From the NCBI RefSeq assembly GCF_900232105.1, contig NZ_LT934425.1, forward strand, positions 990,001-1,022,000: DNA of 32,000 bases. The letters run 5' to 3'. This stretch comes from Candidatus Kuenenia stuttgartensis. Its GTDB lineage: Bacteria > Planctomycetota > Brocadiia > Brocadiales > Brocadiaceae. Below, in pieces: positions 3,262 to 25,011 of the stretch (position 1 is the first letter of the stretch; the number at the start of each line of letters is the position of its first letter). The translations under genes were made by a program, and so were the position numbers. The notes beneath the pieces were generated by a model. The model did no database searches and was not told the DNA's origin. It saw nothing but the letters and a program-made list of their open reading frames with translations.

Positions 3262-3361
3262 ACTACAATCCATCAACTTCTTGTTTTTTATGCTCGTTTT
3301 TCAAGCTGCACAAACGTAAGGCATTAATTAAATGATGCCTACGTAAAGTTTGGAGTATTGA

Positions 3362-4358: not shown

Positions 4359-4841
4359 TTATCTTTTTTCTTTCCCCAGTAAAAGCGCATTATCATAAAG
4401 ATATTCGCTTATATAGATTCCCTCAGTTAACAGCTTATCAAGAGAATGCTTTAATTGCAGAATCTTTCCCTGCTTCTTTGCATCTAACAAAATTCCTATG
4501 GTGCCGGTGACATTGAGTCCATTCAATTTAGCGACCTTCCTGGCTTTATCCTCGTCTATAATAACAAGGCCGATATCCTTTTCTTGAGCCAGGACGATTA
4601 CCTCTGCCTCTCCTTCATCAATGATTAACCCAAGTGCTGTCTTTGCTTTAATGTCTAAAACATCCGCCTTCCTGTTTTCCCCCCATTTTTCAATGACAGA
4701 AGCCTTTCGTTTCCCTTTCCTCGTTGTCTCTTTAAAAACGGCGTTAGGGATATATATTTCTTCAAAAAGTTCATCCAGCAAAGACAATCTGTCAATAATA
4801 GCCAGGGAGATGAGTGGTGTGGAATTGATTACCGCCTTCAT
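4359..4841 (-). CDS. PIN-like toxin, DUF3368 family
   Basis: 160 aa: MKAVINSTPLISLAIIDRLSLL...DEGEAEVIVLAQEKDIGLVIIDEDKARKVAKLNGLNVTGTIGILL. It has a 4-nt overlap with the upstream UPF0175 gene and is a paralog of 1-353. Confidence 0.8.
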   Translation of the reverse strand: MKAVINSTPLISLAIIDRLSLLDELFEEIYIPNAVFKETTRKGKRKASVIEKWGENRKADVLDIKAKTALGLIIDEGEAEVIVLAQEKDIGLVIIDEDKARKVAKLNGLNVTGTIGILLDAKKQGKILQLKHSLDKLLTEGIYISEYLYDNALLLGKEKR

Positions 4842-5119
4842 CTTAAGGCTTCCCTTGCCTTTTGGATACTGCGTAAGTCCTCTTCCAGTTCTTCCGGTGG
4901 GTAGTTATACACAGATATCTTGTTATTGGATAACAATTCCATGAAATCTAATTTGCTCATCTCTGCCAATTCAGCAGCCTTTCCCAAGGATAGTTTACCT
5001 ATTTCAAAGAACTTGATGGCAGCAAATATTTTCACATCTTTAAGGAACTCTGCCGGCTTTTCATTTAGAGCCAGTAATATATCTTCAGCAACGGACAGTT
5101 CCATCTTTTTTACCAACAT
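4838..5119 (-). CDS. UPF0175-family antitoxin
   Basis: 93 aa: ...AAIKFFEIGKLSLGKAAELAEMSKLDFMELLSNNKISV. It is a paralog of 343-627 and is translationally coupled to the PIN-like gene. Confidence 0.8.
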   Translation of the reverse strand: MLVKKMELSVAEDILLALNEKPAEFLKDVKIFAAIKFFEIGKLSLGKAAELAEMSKLDFMELLSNNKISVYNYPPEELEEDLRSIQKAREALR

Positions 5120-5236
5120 TTCGGCATCTCCTTATGAAAAATAGAAAAAATAGGTCCAACTCAGCCTCGTCGGGATAAGTATCCTTGAGAACTTCTATCT
5201 TATGCAATAACTCCATTGTCAATCCCTCCTTCTGAA

Positions 5237-5480
5237 AAGTATTTGGGCTCAGACCTTGAATATAGAATACAAAATTCAGCCCGCATCTTTTTAAGTATTC
5301 TTTGTAATTATTTTTGCCACTAATGGACTAAGACACAAACGGGTAAATTCCAAATAACAAATCCCAAAAATCAAATAACAGACAACATCCAATTTAGTAA
5401 TTACTGCACAACAAAGCCTGCCCTCATGGAAATAGTGTACGCAAAGAAAAGCAGATCATAAACATATTTTAGCCGTGAAT
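5237..5480. repeat. Repeat family A, copy 2 (full length, ~240 bp)
   Basis: Near-identical to 6868-7112 over its whole length (aaaagtatttgggctcagaccttgaatatagaa...tttttgccac...ggactaagacacaaacgggtaaattccaaataacaaatcccaaaaatcaaataacagacaacatccaatttagtaattactgcacaacaaagcctgcc...). Confidence 0.9.
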
Positions 5481-5541
5481 AAAAGATAGACAGGATCAGC
5501 CCTTGTAACTATTTAGCGTAAACATTACACGACTCCCCGCA

Positions 5542-5932
5542 GGTTCAGGTTTGTAACCCAATGTCATTAAGTTAAGCAACCTGCCAGAAAAGTCCCCCTT
5601 AATAAAGGAGGAAAAAGGGGGTTGTTTTTAATAAAATAATTCTTAACACCTTAGTTATTTGAAAAATCCAAGGGGATATAAAAAACAATGTAGCCCCTTT
5701 AGGGGCGGTCTGTTTGTAGCGCAATAAAATTCAACAGGTAAATAGCTCCATAGGAGCGGCCTGTATATGCTTGACAGGAAGACAGGCCGCTCCTGACGGA
5801 GCTAATATCTGTTATGGTATCCTATCTACTACAAACAGGTTGCTCCTACGGAGCTTATCGGTAATACGTTTTTTTTAAACCAAAGTGTTACAATAATTCT
5901 TAACTTAATGACATTGGTTTGTAACCTGAACC
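5542..5932. repeat. Second-layer palindromic element (TIR ggttcaggtt..aatgtcattaagttaag)
   Basis: ggttcaggtttgtaacccaatgtcattaagttaag (5542-5576) pairs with cttaacttaatgacattggtttgtaacctgaacc (5899-5932). A solo hairpin version, ggttcaggttacaaacctgaacc, lies at 6073-6095. Confidence 0.75.
5643..5891. repeat. Family B MITE copy B1 (TIR ~GTAACACTTTAGTTTTTTGAAAAA) with 8-bp TSD
   Basis: ttaacaccttagttatttgaaaaa (left end) pairs with ttttttttaaaccaaagtgttac (right end). The direct duplication aataattc occurs at 5635-5642 and 5892-5899. It carries an inner palindrome, tagctccataggagcggcctgt...acaggccgctcctgacggagcta. Confidence 0.75.
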
Positions 5933-6332
5933 TATGAGTTTATGCGTATAATGGGGCCATGTACTGCGGTAAAATTCCAATGCCCAAATCACAAAATCCC
6001 TGTTTGGAACCTGGAATTTATTTGTCATTTGTTCTGCTAATAGAAGGCTGAATTGAAAGTATAAAACGTTTGGTTCAGGTTACAAACCTGAACCCGCGAA
6101 TGTAGTTTCCATTGCCATTACGTTCCCAAACAGATACTTCACTATGTTCAGTACAAGGTTTGAGAACGAGTTGTGCTTCGGTAGTTTAATAGATTACGCT
6201 GAATAGTTACCAGCCCTTTATAATTCAAATGCCTAATACGAGAAACAACCCTGACAGGGATTTAAACCCTGTCAGGGTTAATACATTTTCAGGTTAAGGT
6301 TAATAAGTTAAAGATAAATAGAGCATATATAT

Positions 6333-6545
6333 TTACACAGAGACAGACATTTTCTCAGTTTTTTCGTCTACAGCACGAATAATCTGTTGGATTGTATCTG
6401 CTTCTGCCTCATCAAAGTATACTTCGCCACATTGCGCGCACACCCAGGCAGGAATAGTATCCAACATCAGATGATAGCTTTTACGATCAATGTGGAAAGG
6501 TGCAGTTCCCCGCTCCATTTCACCTTGACAATACATACATTTCAT
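6333..6545 (-). CDS. YgiT-type zinc-finger protein (MqsA-like antitoxin N-domain, no HTH)
   Basis: 70 aa: MKCMYCQGEMERGTAPFHIDRKSYHLMLDTIPAWVCAQCGEVYFDEAEADTIQ. It has two CxxC pairs in the YgiT layout and is coupled to the upstream DUF4258 ORF by a 1-nt overlap. Confidence 0.75.
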   Translation of the reverse strand: MKCMYCQGEMERGTAPFHIDRKSYHLMLDTIPAWVCAQCGEVYFDEAEADTIQQIIRAVDEKTEKMSVSV

Positions 6546-6796
6546 TATAGTTTCCTCCTTTTAAAATTCTCTTCCCATTCCTGCTCGCTTAGAAGGTAAG
6601 CAGTAATAACGGCCGGATATTCTGTTTTCGGTGAACAGACAACATGTATTGGACGATTGCTTTCTCCCTGACCAGGAATAAGACAACTATGGCCACGAAC
6701 ATCTTCCGGATAATCTTCTACCAGTTCTCCATTTCCGATAGCAAGGCAAACTTCAGCCATGCTTATCATTCTATCAGGACGTGACATTTGTCTCAC
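6545..6796 (-). CDS. DUF4258-family putative toxin (start uncertain)
   Basis: ...HAVRQMSRPDRMISMAEVCLAIGNGELVEDYPEDVRGHSCLIPGQGESNRPIHVVCSP fits the DUF4258 pattern. The track start is a GTG. The same frame stays open upstream to about 6869 (YIYEYSESCRQSAEKRILVLPHAV...) without an ATG. Confidence 0.65.
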   Translation of the reverse strand: MRQMSRPDRMISMAEVCLAIGNGELVEDYPEDVRGHSCLIPGQGESNRPIHVVCSPKTEYPAVITAYLLSEQEWEENFKRRKL

Positions 6797-6867: not shown

Positions 6868-7112
6868 AAAAGTATTTGGGCTCAGACCTTGAATATAGAA
6901 AACAAAATTCAGCCCACATCTTTTTAAGTATTCTTTGTAATTATTTTTGCCACGAAGGGACTAAGACACAAACGGGTAAATTCCAAATAACAAATCCCAA
7001 AAATCAAATAACAGACAACATCCAATTTAGTAATTACTGCACAACAAAGCCTGCCTTCATGGAAATAGTGTACGCAAAGAAAAGCAAATTAAAAACATAT
7101 TTAGCCACAAAT
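6868..7112. repeat. Repeat family A, copy 3 (full length)
   Basis: Near-identical to 5237-5480. It is followed by a further repeat module at 7113-7180 (tccgtacgataaccttcggttccctacagggcaggcacggataaacacagataaaaaaa) that recurs at 9703-9760. Confidence 0.9.
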
Positions 7113-9759: not shown

Positions 9760-10053
9760 ATAACATTTTAGCTTTTTGAAAAATTCACAGGATAGAAAAA
9801 ATACCATGTAGCCCCGGCAGGGGCGGTCTGTTTGTAGCACAATAAAATTCAATAGAATAAATAGCTCCGTAGGAGCGGCATGTCCGTATTCAGGCAGACC
9901 TGTTTATATGGATTTACAAAAGACAGATCACTCCTAATTGCAGAGACAGGTTTCAAACCTGTCTCTACGATCTGTTATAATATCCTATTTTACCACAAAC
10001 AGGCTGCTCCTACGGAGCTTATTAGTACATTTTTCAAAAAACTAAAGTGTTAC
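9760..10053. repeat. Family B MITE copy B2
   Basis: ataacattttagctttttgaaaaa (9760-9783) pairs with tttttcaaaaaactaaagtgttac (10030-10053). The cargo is related to B1 (gtagccccggcaggggcggtctgtttgtag...tagctccgtaggagc...) plus the hairpin gagacaggtttcaaacctgtctc. ataaaaaa(taac) is repeated at both flanks. Confidence 0.75.
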
Positions 10054-15472: not shown

Positions 15473-15510
15473 GAAACACTTTAGTCTTTTTCAAAAAACT
15501 AACGTGTTAC
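15473..15510. repeat. Family B minimal copy B5 (two TIRs back to back, 38 nt hairpin)
   Basis: gaaacactttagtctttttcaaaaaactaacgtgttac consists of the TIRs only, with no cargo. It lies 26 nt downstream of the wza-like stop. Confidence 0.75.
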
Positions 15511-21784: not shown

Positions 21785-22196
21785 CTTAAAGAAAAACCCA
21801 TACCACATATCATATTAAAAATAATAACTCTGTAAATACCCTATTTGGGGTATATACAAATGGGTGTCTTCTTTTGAGTTAATGGATAGCGTGCGCGTGC
21901 GCCTGCACTTATGCAGATTTATTCGTATGCAATAATGAAGTAACCGGGTATTTTGAATTAGAACGAAATCGGTTTGAACATCGAAAAATAGAGGGACACT
22001 TCCCGTATTTCAAAAATTACTGTGGGAAGTGTCCTTTCTTAAAGAAAAATCCATATCACATATCATATTAAAAATAATAACTCTGTAAATACCCTATTTG
22101 GGGTATATACAAATGGGTGTCTTCTTTTGGGTTAATGGATAGTGTGCGCCTGCGCTTCTGCAGATTTATTCGTATGCAATAATGACGTAGCCGGGG
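21785..22196. repeat. Tandem duplication, period 253 bp (1.6 copies)
   Basis: cttaaagaaaaacccataccacatatcatattaaaaataataactctgtaaataccctatttggggtatatacaaatgggtgtcttcttttg... (21785-21947) repeats at 22038-22195. Copy 1 has a 6-nt gtgcgc expansion. Confidence 0.9.
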
Positions 22197-22336
22197 GGAG
22201 CATTCCCGATTTTTTGTAACCGCTCATGAGGTCAGGACTAAACAACCCTGACAGGGTTTCAAACCCTGTCAGGGTTAATGCTCTGCAACGTTTCACCGAA
22301 ACCAGCGGAAGTCGCAAAAAATCAGGAATGCCCTCC
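22197..22336. repeat. 140-bp MITE-like element (TIR GGAGCATTCCCGATTTTTTGTAAC)
   Basis: ggagcattcccgattttttgtaac...ccctgacagggtttcaaaccctgtcaggg...gtcgcaaaaaatcaggaatgccctcc. The same TIR word recurs at about 10801-10825, 11952-11974, 12050-12072, 15118-15141, 22495-22520 and 24848-24873. Confidence 0.75.
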
Positions 22337-22566
22337 ATCTACTATACCTTACGAGTTCACAAGTTAGGCCTTTGGCGACTTTTTCGTTGATGTAGAGCGA
22401 AGTGCCACTTCGCTCGAACGAAGCAATCGCTTCGTTCTACAACTTTGAAAAATTCCTGAACGGCAAGCAAGATGCTTGTGATACAATGTGATAAAATTTA
22501 CAAAAAATCGGGAATGCTCCTGTTGTTCAAACTATGTCCCCCGCTGGCGGGGGTGCAGGGGGTGGA

Positions 22567-24578
22567 CTAGCGTGAGTTTATCACAAAATAAGGCATGAAG
22601 CAACGTAACATAAATACAGTCAATGCGTTAAGCACAACATCAATTGTATACACTGAGTCCTTGAAGTTTCAGCCGATGTTTGTGGAAATCCATAATGCCT
22701 AACGCATTCATCAACAGAGATTCCTTGTCGGACATTTCTTCCAATTTGTAGGTAGCCTTAACTCTCCCTCTGGCCTTTGTTTCTTCAAGCATAGCAGAAA
22801 GCCTTATATTATTAAGGGTGTCTAACAGGGTATCTAACGTTCCACTAAATTGTGCGTGCGCTTTTGCCTGATACCACACAATCGCCGCCATTAGGTATCC
22901 GAGGACGCAAATAAAAAAATGCACCCTGATTTTCTGATCCGTCCAGTGAAATTGCGGTTTTAAAGCAAGGTGATAGGGGTTCTTGAGATTTCTAAAGGCA
23001 TGTTCAATTTTTGATTGCCCATAGTAGGCTTTTATAATGTCCGCGGTATCCCAATCGTGATGGTCTGTCATAAGAATCCTGAACCCCAGTTCCCCTTCTA
23101 TTTCTTCGAGCTTTTTCTGGTCGATTGAAAAATTCAATTGAAACTTGCCTTCAGATACCTCTTTTAACGACCAATCGATAACATCCTTCGCAAATTGACA
23201 TTTCACTACACTTCTTATCGTATCCTCCAGACCCTCTTTGTCCCGCATCTTTCCCTTTGGATTACACAGATGCTGCTGTAAGAGCTTTAACTGATGTTCT
23301 GCCTTTTCCAGAGACTGAGACATTCCCCTTAATTGCCCAACCTTTAATTTCTCGGAAATAAATACGACAACGGTTCTTTCCTGCCCCCAAATAACCCGTT
23401 TGTCATGGTACACCTGTATCTTACTGCCGTCAACGTCATATTCCCTGAAATTACACATGGCATCCCCTACCAACTGCTTGTGATGATACGGTGTAAGCGC
23501 TCCAACGTAATGCAATGCCAATCTCTCTACAATAGCCATATTGTCCATGGAATTGTTTCCACGATCAAAAACAATAGTGTGCTTTTTGCTGTCGAAACCT
23601 AATCCGGTCATCCTGTCTTTTATCGTCTCAAGAACCGCGCTGAACACCTTTGCATCCGCCATGTTCCCCTGATAGGTATGGTGAAACAACGGTATCATGT
23701 CGTTACGTGTAACGACCATCGCCAACCCGACCTGCCTGAGATCGTATCGCTTTTGTTTGTTTTTCCCCCGCCGGGCAATAGTGCATCGCAGATTAGTTGT
23801 GTCGATATACGTGAAAAAATTGGTTGTATCAAAAAACAGTGTGTCGCTTTGAAGGTTGTATGTTTTAAATGTCTTTTCAATTAATTCGCGCTCGATTTCT
23901 GCAATGGATTCTTCAGGAAGTGCATCCATCAAATCCCAGAAATGCTGACTGTCTATTTTACTCAAGCTGTGTCTGAGTAAGTATTCGGCAGTAGTCGTCT
24001 TTGCCCAATCCCACCATCCTCTTTTGCTGGTAGGCACACACACTCTCCCCACGGCACCCAACAAGAGGGTACTTCCGGCGGTCAGATTATTTCGAACAGG
24101 TTTTTTAGCACAATACTGCCGTGGCGACTTTATATATTTATTAATCACGGAAGGGACGTCCAGGGCATTGGCCACACTTAGCAATGCGGCTACCGCGCCA
24201 TGTGAATAAGATTTGAGCCGTAATTTTTCGGTAAGACCTTGCAGTTGTTTTAATAAATCGTCTGCCTTGCCAAGATAGGCCAGGACGATGGGCCTGGGCT
24301 TGCCGTTAACGCGCCGCGATTCGACAATATACCAATATTTATAACCTCTGGAGTTTTTAGATTGAATGGTAGCCATGGCTATTAGTTGTTAGTGTATACG
24401 TAATAGATTAATACTCCGTGTATAATAGTATATACAGGCATATAATGCAATATAAATATAGTATTATTCAGTGTATACATAATTTTTTAGACAAAAAAAG
24501 TCGCAACCCGATACAAATCATTGGATTGCAACTTGATGTCTTTGTCTTACACCTTATTTCGTGATAAACTCACGCTAG
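22567..24578 (-). mobile_element. Insertion sequence, IS1634/IS4-type (about 2.0 kb)
   Basis: Terminal inverted repeats are ctagcgtgagtttatcacaaaataagg (22567-) and the reverse complement of ccttatttcgtgataaactcacgctag (-24578), matching 26/27. The flanks rejoin to the uninterrupted family C copy at 11555-11575 (ggtggaccggatttctcc). Confidence 0.85.
22640..24376 (-). CDS. IS1634-family (IS4 superfamily) DDE transposase
   Basis: 578 aa. The N-terminus MATIQSKNSRGYKYWYIVESRRVNGKPRPIVLAYLGK is typical of IS1634. Also present are VFDRGNNSMDN and YYGQSKIEHAFRNLKNP (E-x6-K). Confidence 0.9.
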   Translation of the reverse strand: MATIQSKNSRGYKYWYIVESRRVNGKPRPIVLAYLGKADDLLKQLQGLTEKLRLKSYSHGAVAALLSVANALDVPSVINKYIKSPRQYCAKKPVRNNLTAGSTLLLGAVGRVCVPTSKRGWWDWAKTTTAEYLLRHSLSKIDSQHFWDLMDALPEESIAEIERELIEKTFKTYNLQSDTLFFDTTNFFTYIDTTNLRCTIARRGKNKQKRYDLRQVGLAMVVTRNDMIPLFHHTYQGNMADAKVFSAVLETIKDRMTGLGFDSKKHTIVFDRGNNSMDNMAIVERLALHYVGALTPYHHKQLVGDAMCNFREYDVDGSKIQVYHDKRVIWGQERTVVVFISEKLKVGQLRGMSQSLEKAEHQLKLLQQHLCNPKGKMRDKEGLEDTIRSVVKCQFAKDVIDWSLKEVSEGKFQLNFSIDQKKLEEIEGELGFRILMTDHHDWDTADIIKAYYGQSKIEHAFRNLKNPYHLALKPQFHWTDQKIRVHFFICVLGYLMAAIVWYQAKAHAQFSGTLDTLLDTLNNIRLSAMLEETKARGRVKATYKLEEMSDKESLLMNALGIMDFHKHRLKLQGLSVYN

Positions 24579-25011
24579 ATTTCTCCATCGATTCAACTAC
24601 CCCTTTATTATGAAAACAAATTTAACCCTCTTTCTCACGCTTCGCAGACTGGTCAAATGGACGATTTTATCCTGTTTCGTGACATGCATTCCCGCAGAGC
24701 GCAGGAATGAGAAGAAAAACTTATGGCTATTCATGTTATAAACCTCCCAGATTTCCTCCGCAGACAATTCCACCCCCTTAATCCCCCGCCAGCGGGGGAC
24801 AGGCTTGCCACATCCCTTGCAGCGTTGTTTTGCCCCAATCACACAAACGGTTACAAAAAATCGGGAATGCTCCCGATTGTAGCAAGGCTAATAGCAGGGT
24901 ATTTTGAATTAGATCGAAATCTGTTTGAACACCGAAAAATAGAGGGACACTTCCCATATTTCAAAAATTAATGTGGGAAGTATCCTTCTATTACATTCGT
25001 TCAGAAAACCC

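Follow-up and report, generated by a model that had tools for sequence, protein, structure and literature searches.

A probable nest of three non-coding MITEs in an intergenic spacer of Candidatus Kuenenia stuttgartensis

A stretch of 722 bases (positions 5497-6218) was examined in the 32,000-nt piece of Candidatus Kuenenia stuttgartensis DNA that is referred to here as the window. It is very probable that this stretch consists of three non-coding MITEs, nested one inside another and each furnished with its own target duplication (TSD), and that it was built by three successive cut-and-paste insertions, each driven in trans by a DDE transposase whose gene lies elsewhere. In the proposed course of events, a MITE with IS66-family ends (GTAACTATTYAGCGTAA; layer 1) would have entered the spacer between two toxin-antitoxin operons, duplicating 8 bp (CAGCCCTT). 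A 101-nt MITE with IS1675-type IS4-family ends (CAATGTCATTAAGTTAAG; layer 2) would then have entered the center of a 23-nt palindrome inside layer 1, an insertion that would have duplicated 10 bp (GTTTGTAACC). Finally, a 249-nt, Kuenenia-specific, GTAAC-ended MITE (layer 3) would have entered the inner edge of the right end of layer 2, with duplication of 8 bp (AATAATTC). The order given is the one suggested by the nesting, and mobilization in trans is what we infer for the MITEs.

An earlier, sequence-only reading of this DNA had described a nest of at least four palindromic elements, two of them with TSDs. When the sequence was re-examined, all of the repeats that it had listed were found at their coordinates, and its view of them as real, nested, non-autonomous transposition products mobilized in trans was borne out. 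Both of the 8-bp TSDs that it had named obey the rule measured for their respective element classes. The count was revised: there are three insertions, all three have TSDs (8, 10 and 8 bp), and the supposed fourth layer is internal structure of the third. Among nested transposons it is a tidy but commonplace example, with each part of a known kind (IS66-type MITEs, an IS1675-type MITE, one element inserted in another, and an IS that is directed to a repeated palindrome), and how transposons are generally understood is not altered by it. The nest provides a worked, datable record of three insertions in an anammox genome, with the elements tied to transposase families already described (IS66 and IS1675-type IS4); in the literature, no published account of MITEs in this genome and no paper connecting Kuenenia with MITEs was found.

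Layer 1 and the intergenic locus

The window is ca. 40% G+C and repeat-dense, and hairpin repeats, some of them terminator-like, abound in the genome. The nest lies in a 1213-nt intergenic spacer (ca. 1.2 kb) with a UPF0175/DUF3368 toxin-antitoxin pair (4359-5119, minus strand) on one side and a DUF4258/MqsA-like pair (6333-6796, minus strand) on the other. Loci were collected by exact-protein look-ups, and the 1213-nt spacer was 99.8-100% identical in every assembly spanning it. The locus is present in GCA_022180985.1, GCA_900232175.1 and GCA_027493735.1, and in reactor metagenomes as well; one rearranged copy (L016/L018) departs from the window at the second of two hairpins in layer 1. A genome scan showed that the same repeat families are present in “Candidatus Kuenenia sp. 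Bin_40”. Because the nest is fixed across the assemblies while IS1634 copies nearby are polymorphic, the MITE insertions are probably old. No orthologous empty site for layer 1 or layer 3 was found among the assemblies spanning the locus or among relatives of the antitoxin gene; near homologues of the MqsA-like antitoxin (84-96% identity) have non-collinear contexts. A 235-nt repeat (5235-5469 and 6868-7102) was considered as a paralogous empty site for layer 1 and was discarded, as it stops before the insertion point.

Layer 1 occupies 5505-6210 (706 nt as found; 338 nt after subtraction of layer 2 and one copy of its TSD) and is flanked by two copies of CAGCCCTT at 5497-5504 and 6211-6218. 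Its left end, GTAACTATTTAGCGTAA (5505-5521), agrees with the reverse complement of 6194-6210 at 16 of 17 positions, and these ends are the sole two matches in the 32 kb even when 3 mismatches are allowed (0.20 expected). The element is small and multi-copy, has no ORF of note, and is one of a “long” Kuenenia subfamily, whose members carry two 23-nt hairpins in inverted orientation. Hairpin 1 is the one interrupted by layer 2; hairpin 2 (6072-6094; GGTTCAGGTTACAAACCTGAACC) is a perfect 23-nt palindrome and is unoccupied in the window. Other copies of the family were located at different loci: one in L014 (18283-18904) and others in L043, L084 and L128 of Kuenenia sp. Bin_40. The L014 copy, from the same species, is a 127-nt short form of layer 1 that carries another nested MITE and has no TSD (ggcaagtc v. 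gcaacgga). The block formed by hairpin 1, the spacer between the hairpins and hairpin 2 has inverted arms (5538-5558 and 6078-6098), and the 127-nt short form of L014 lacks it. This block may be a further, older layer, but it has no clean TSD and was never seen alone as a whole.

When one genome per bacterial species was scanned for exact matches to the 17-mer GTAACTATTYAGCGTAA, at least 120 stretches were returned. Approximately 140 chance matches are expected for a 17-mer with one Y in 596 Gb (both strands), and isolated matches inside genes are probably noise. Among the matches listed, many phyla are represented, including Desulfobacterota, several Gammaproteobacteria, Chloroflexota, Bacteroidota and four anammox lineages. 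Many of these matches occur several times per genome, many are situated 100-140 nt from contig ends, and 39 have an inverted partner, in most cases 129-322 nt away; the bulk of them are therefore not attributable to chance. For the 39 inverted-end pairs among the matches listed, an exact 8-bp TSD was found in 23, and 7 more agreed at 7 of 8 positions. As a built-in control, the same 39 pairs were compared at 6, 7 or 10 bp, and no matches resulted. Most TSDs of this end class are AT-rich; that of layer 1 itself is GC-rich.

Elements with the same ends also encode transposases. A 1708-nt element in L037 has exact 17-mer ends, a TSD (CGAAATTG) and an ORF for an IS66-family transposase (PF03050, E = 2.7e-39; NF033517, 220.7 bits against a cutoff of 180). 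A second element, of 1594 nt (L122; TSD AATTTAGA), likewise has exact 17-mer ends; its ORF carries only the DUF6444 N-terminal domain, and similarity to IS66 transposases also adjoins its end. IS66 coding fragments lie next to the 17-nt end in 11 loci among the matches listed, and an Oceanisphaera plasmid bears a 1570-nt IS66 element whose ends have the first 13 nt in common. Thus, given same-ended elements that encode IS66 transposases and the 8-bp TSD rule, layer 1 is a MITE with IS66-family ends. A TSD of 8 bp is the norm in the IS66 family (ISfinder). The GTAA start is shared with IS66 elements (single-ORF, ca. 1.6-1.7 kb, ISBst12-group type) and the MITEs derived from them; unlike the IS66 elements, layers 1 and 3 are non-coding. 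Ends of the family have been quoted as GTAAGCG... and GTAACCG... (PMC12888890).

Layer 2 and the hairpin that surrounds it

Layer 2 spans 5559-5916 (358 nt as found; 101 nt without layer 3). Its ends (5559-5576 and 5899-5916; CAATGTCATTAAGTTAAG) are perfect inverted repeats (18/18). A metagenome scan with this 18-mer returned at least 119 stretches. Among the matches listed, the 18-mer bounds elements of 1.44-1.67 kb that encode IS4-family transposases (PF01609; NF033592, ca. 153 bits v. 115), and these are 42-45% identical to plasmid proteins designated “IS4-like element IS1675 family”. The annotated IS1675 of a Lactococcus lactis plasmid terminates in this 18-mer too and is flanked by a 10-bp TSD (GAGTATACCC). 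In the 47 end pairs among the matches listed, a 10-bp TSD was perfect in 11 and present in 16 at no more than one mismatch; an 8-bp TSD was found in none. Many pairs among those matches are MITE-sized (71-282 nt). Because its ends are identical to these and the 10-bp TSD rule is followed, layer 2 is a 101-nt IS1675-type MITE. It shares the 18-nt end and the 10-bp TSD with IS1675 (IS4 family), and differs in being a 101-nt non-coding derivative that resides in a planctomycete and in that its Kuenenia relatives, at five junctions, are always located in one particular hairpin.

A second member of the layer-2 family was found in the rearranged copy of the locus (L016/L018), where it occupies hairpin 2 and is flanked by a 10-bp TSD of its own (GTTGCAAACC). 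Its interior is 91.7% identical to that of layer 2 over 109 nt. This copy bears on the possibility that layer 2 entered the hairpin as a full-length IS1675-type IS and was later shortened in place by internal deletion, such that no MITE ever transposed. We consider that account unlikely. It draws on the sister species, in which the same hairpin position is filled by other interiors that run off contig ends; these may be full-length IS, since multi-copy full-length IS behave in this way. It is opposed by the second copy, in which the same short interior appears in the other hairpin with a separate 10-bp TSD, and by the commonness in metagenomes of 71-282 nt elements that have the same ends and a 10-bp TSD. 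The L016 copy could, in turn, have come about by copying between the two inverted hairpins instead of by transposition.

The sequence-only reading had given layer 2 TIRs of ca. 34 bp and a span of 5542-5932. The inverted arms in question (5542-5576 and 5899-5932) are real, measuring 35 and 34 nt, respectively. To the left of the 18-nt end they comprise GGTTCAG followed by the left TSD copy (GTTTGTAACC, 5549-5558), which together make up 5542-5558; to the right, 5917-5932 is made up of the other TSD copy (GTTTGTAACC, 5917-5926) and TGAACC. The outer 16-17 nt of the arms represent the two halves of the first 23-nt hairpin of layer 1, which was divided by the insertion. When layer 2 and one TSD copy were excised in silico (5542-5558 joined to 5927-5932), the product was GGTTCAGGTTTGTAACCTGAACC, the exact reverse complement of hairpin 2 (6072-6094). 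Homologous sites of this form exist: in L043 and L084 (Bin_40), the sequence reads GTAACTATTCAGCGTAA-ACATTACACGA...GGCG-GGTTCAGGTTTGCAACCTGAACC-TATGAGTTTATGCG..., i.e. layer 1 with an intact 23-nt hairpin at the place where the window has 368 extra bases. The boundaries of these empty sites differ from the ends that had been proposed, and the element, its ends being 18 nt and its TSD 10 bp, is accordingly corrected to a span of 5559-5916. The case shows that a target palindrome, once split, can pass for a long terminal repeat.

For these reasons, a reading with four nested palindromic elements, in which layer 2 has ca. 34-bp TIRs (5542/5932) and no TSD and a fourth element sits inside layer 3, is quite improbable. 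The 35/34-nt inverted arms and the inner arms on which it relies do exist, and GGTTCAGGTT..AACC precedes every layer-2-type end seen in Kuenenia. Yet in homologous copies of layer 1 the core is missing and the 23-nt hairpin is intact. Moreover, the TGT triplet at the center of the hairpin, in its loop, is repeated directly in both complete layer-2 copies (window and L016), as a TSD predicts, whereas a TIR predicts an inverted repeat. Both the direct triplet and the 35/34-nt asymmetry follow from the presence of the 10-bp TSD within the split hairpin. Elsewhere, an 18-nt end, a 10-bp TSD and variable flanks are the rule, annotated IS1675 included.

The positions of IS1675-type ends were compared in the Kuenenia DNA examined (ca. 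100 kb, non-redundant). Five end junctions were available from two Kuenenia species: that of the window, the second copy in L016, and those in L128, in L084 near 6364 and in L116. All five are 16 or 17 nt into the 23-nt palindrome, a spacing that results from a 10-bp staggered cut near the palindrome center. At least three different element interiors, in both orientations, are represented at these junctions. Empty hairpins were also observed (hairpin 2 of the window, hairpin 1 of L043, L084 near 68, and hairpin 2 of L128). In four of the five junctions the hairpin is inside a layer-1-type element; in L116, what can be seen of the flank resembles ordinary genomic DNA. Among the metagenomic targets of the layer-2 class, several are palindromic, one of them matching its own reverse complement at 24 of 26 positions.

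From these five junctions, which carry no genome-wide statistic, the sequence data suggest that the IS1675-type transposase prefers this hairpin. Whether the 23-nt palindrome (GGTTCAGGTTNNNAACCTGAACC), present as two inverted copies in the long IS66-type MITE, serves in Kuenenia as a landing pad dedicated to IS1675-type IS4 elements is, in our judgment, evenly balanced; this landing pad is the only part of the analysis that goes beyond routine annotation. If it is real, one transposon family would spread the preferred target of another, and the nesting would stem from target specificity, not from chance. It would also be a compact natural case of one mobile element offering another a safe insertion site. 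The contention that the elements of the nest prefer to land in one another can be retained for the layer-2 class only, by way of its hairpin target, and is dropped for the GTAAC-ended classes, for which mostly AT-rich targets in other taxa were seen together with repeated nesting. Nesting among these families recurs at other loci.

Layer 3 and its inner arms

Layer 3, a MITE of the “family B, long” type, occupies 5643-5891 (249 nt; ends TTAACACCTTAG... / ...CCAAAGTGTTAC). Its TSD (AATAATTC) is found at 5635-5642 and 5892-5899, and the last base of the right copy is the first base of the right end of layer 2. Since the first five bases of layer 3, TTAAC, equal the bases that come after the right TSD copy, a direct repeat of 13 nt (AATAATTCTTAAC) is an alternative reading. 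An empty homologous site is provided by the second layer-2 copy in L016, which is uninterrupted at the layer-3 insertion point (...aatcaaatatccttaactt...) and is therefore a paralogous one.

The ends GTAACACTTTAG(TTTTTTGAAAAA) mark an abundant family (family B) whose interiors vary and which was observed in Kuenenia alone. In the window there are 9 occurrences of the 12-mer end GTAACACTTTRG (0.21 expected) and at least six other copies with layer-3 ends. The ends of layer 3 itself are degenerate, the worst of the three layers, with 3 and 6 mismatches against the 24-nt consensus and T in place of G as the first base. Among distinct family-B copies, a perfect 8-bp TSD was found twice (AATAATTC here and GAAATTTG at L001 19476-19664); otherwise, the flanks agreed at 7 of 8 positions in three or four copies, one being a segmental duplicate, and at 6 of 8 once. 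No coding element with family-B ends was found among the loci examined, and viral contigs gave no match. From its GTAA(C) start and its 8-bp TSD, the only features used for the assignment, it may be supposed that layer 3 was mobilized by an IS66-type transposase.

Folding of layer 3 as single-stranded DNA gives a single long hairpin (-48.9 kcal/mol, z = -7.6). The inner arms that had been taken for a fourth inserted element, along with the innermost palindrome (5743-5805; perfect core 5752-5764 / 5782-5794), are present. Copies of the long subfamily (window 5643 and 9760, L014 16331 and L011 19748) were aligned, and the arms GGCGGTCTGTTTGTAG / CTACAAACAGG and the GCTCC..GGAGC hairpins were located at the same positions in the full-length ones; in the shorter L011 copy, the left arm is intact and the right arm is degenerate. 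No TSD flanks the arms in the aligned copies, and in ca. 100 kb of non-redundant Kuenenia DNA the segment was never encountered outside the long subfamily of family B. Differences in length between copies are hairpin indels (a 20-nt gap in L018, the reduced length of the L011 copy, and one small additional hairpin in the copy at 9760). The supposed layer 4 is thus the hairpin body of the palindromic layer-3 MITE, not a separate insertion, a result that also counts against the four-element reading discussed above.

It is hardly credible that the whole stretch consists of REP-like structural palindromes, or of products of local duplication or recombination, flanked by 8-mers that match by chance: the wealth of hairpin repeats in the genome, some terminator-like, and the one layer-1 copy that lacks a TSD would fit, but two exact 8-mers (ca. 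1.5e-5 each) and one exact 10-mer (ca. 1e-6) all abut inverted ends, each TSD has the length measured independently for same-ended elements, transposase-bearing relatives exist, and an Rfam search of the region gave no family matches.

Transposase sources and related systems

Autonomous elements with matching ends were sought for each layer; they were found, in other organisms, for layers 1 and 2, and none was found for layer 3. No IS66 or IS1675-type transposase was detected in the ca. 100 kb of non-redundant Kuenenia DNA examined, the window included. The transposases of K. stuttgartiensis have been given as IS630, IS4 and ISL3 only (PMC7814187). That the window contains no transposase with matching ends, as stated in the earlier reading, was confirmed. 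Its two transposase genes were considered as mobilizers and rejected, both being of the IS1634 family with unrelated ends: one element has ends CCCCCTTTCCGGAAAG and a 6-bp TSD, and the other is bounded by an inverted repeat of 27 nt that begins with CTAGCGTGAG. Tandem ORFs of 518 aa in L013 were likewise considered as an IS66 transposase and set aside, as no supporting domain was present.

Targets of the kind seen for layer 2 have parallels. IS1397 inserts in the loops of palindromic units, and IS231A prefers the symmetric target GGG(N)5CCC. REP palindromes are targeted by ISPpu9, ISPpu10, ISPsy8 and ISPa11 (Tobes and Pareja 2006, PMC1525189). In common with those elements, the layer-2 class enters a short palindrome that is itself repeated, always at one fixed point; unlike in those systems, the palindrome in four of the five junctions is inside a MITE of another family and is not a free-standing REP.

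Nested MITEs and small mobile repeats occur in plants and, as Nezha, in cyanobacteria; small dispersed repeats are reportedly the subject of Elhai et al. 2008. As in other nested MITEs, non-autonomous elements lie inside one another here and the TSDs reveal the order of events, whereas the host lineage and the element families differ from those of plants and cyanobacteria. The MITEs break short-read Kuenenia assemblies at predictable places. Several Kuenenia contigs end ca. 100-140 nt inside them.

Distribution and nesting of the IS66-ended MITEs

The genome scan was carried out with the exact 17-nt IS66-type end of layer 1 (5505-6210), using one genome per bacterial species. Among the matches listed (loci L021-L140), this end recurred in anoxic-sediment and reactor bacteria of unrelated phyla, and 130- and 170-nt MITE subfamilies also carried it exactly. 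One metagenome-assembled genome, MAG240, featured more than 20 copies among the matches listed. These data suggest that one IS66 lineage has spread horizontally and recently.

Nesting within this family was also observed at other Kuenenia loci. The layer-1 family is represented at L014 (18283-18904) by a short form of 127 nt, which hosts a GGGAGCATTCCC-type MITE; the latter is bordered by the 9-bp direct repeat TTCCCAAAC, and layer 1 of the window represents the empty site for this insertion. In L084, a locus of Kuenenia sp. Bin_40, a layer-1-family copy is located within a short family-B MITE (...atgacaatttac|GTAACTATTCAGCGTAA; reverse strand, ca. 6301-6395), and the nesting order is thus the opposite of that in the window. 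At a second Bin_40 locus (L043, ca. 3307-3329), a 23-nt insert, cttcgtcgtgagctcagccgaac, interrupts hairpin 2 of the layer-1 copy.

IS1634-family elements

An IS1634-family element encoding a 627-aa transposase occupies 852-2910 of the window, with ends CCCCCTTTCCGGAAAG / CTTTCCGGAACATGGG and a 6-bp target-site duplication (ATACAA). Its copy number and positions vary among assemblies of the same species, and therefore it appears to be active at present. In the Kuenenia locus L018 (JGI metagenome 3300009868; ca. 1100-1240), a stretch of ca. 140 nt matching the IS1634 element's left end stands in place of the left end of layer 3; in addition, the innermost palindrome of layer 3 is short of 20 nt. 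This variant could be a true rearrangement or an assembly chimera.

A second nest was located at 22196-24873, where a ca. 490-nt MITE having GGGAGCATTCCCGATTTTTTGTAA ends harbors an IS1634-family element (transposase gene at 22640-24376; inverted ends of 27 nt at 22567-22593 and 24552-24578). An uninterrupted copy of this MITE is found in L014 (18340-18830).

Small palindromic units and other features

A palindrome of about 35 nt, AACCCTGACAGGG-N7-CCCTGTCAGGGTT, is repeated in the window (6246-6280 and 22240-22279) and in L016, L043, and L014. On the minus strand, the copy at 6246-6280 looks like an intrinsic terminator: it has a 14-bp stem with a T-rich tail behind it and lies 53 nt past the MqsA-like gene's stop codon. 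These palindromes may be a REP-like family that also serves as a terminator.

The 38-nt unit at 15473-15510 contains nothing but a pair of family-B ends arranged back to back (GAAACACTTTAGTCTTTTT / CAAAAAACTAACGTGTTAC); it may represent a MITE in minimal or collapsed form. One long family-B copy contains a 29-nt hairpin, GCAGAGACAGGTTTCAAACCTGTCTCTAC (9940-9968), that is absent from layer 3 and is possibly a mobile palindrome of very small size; similar hairpins were found in L014 and in another Kuenenia locus, L116.

Upstream of three different toxin-antitoxin operons is a conserved segment of 84-235 nt (640-723, 5235-5469, and 6868-7102; 95-98% identical), which is probably a common promoter or leader. 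On the minus strand, 3919-4072 matches the Rfam model for the catalytic domain of group II introns (RF00029, 47.9 bits).
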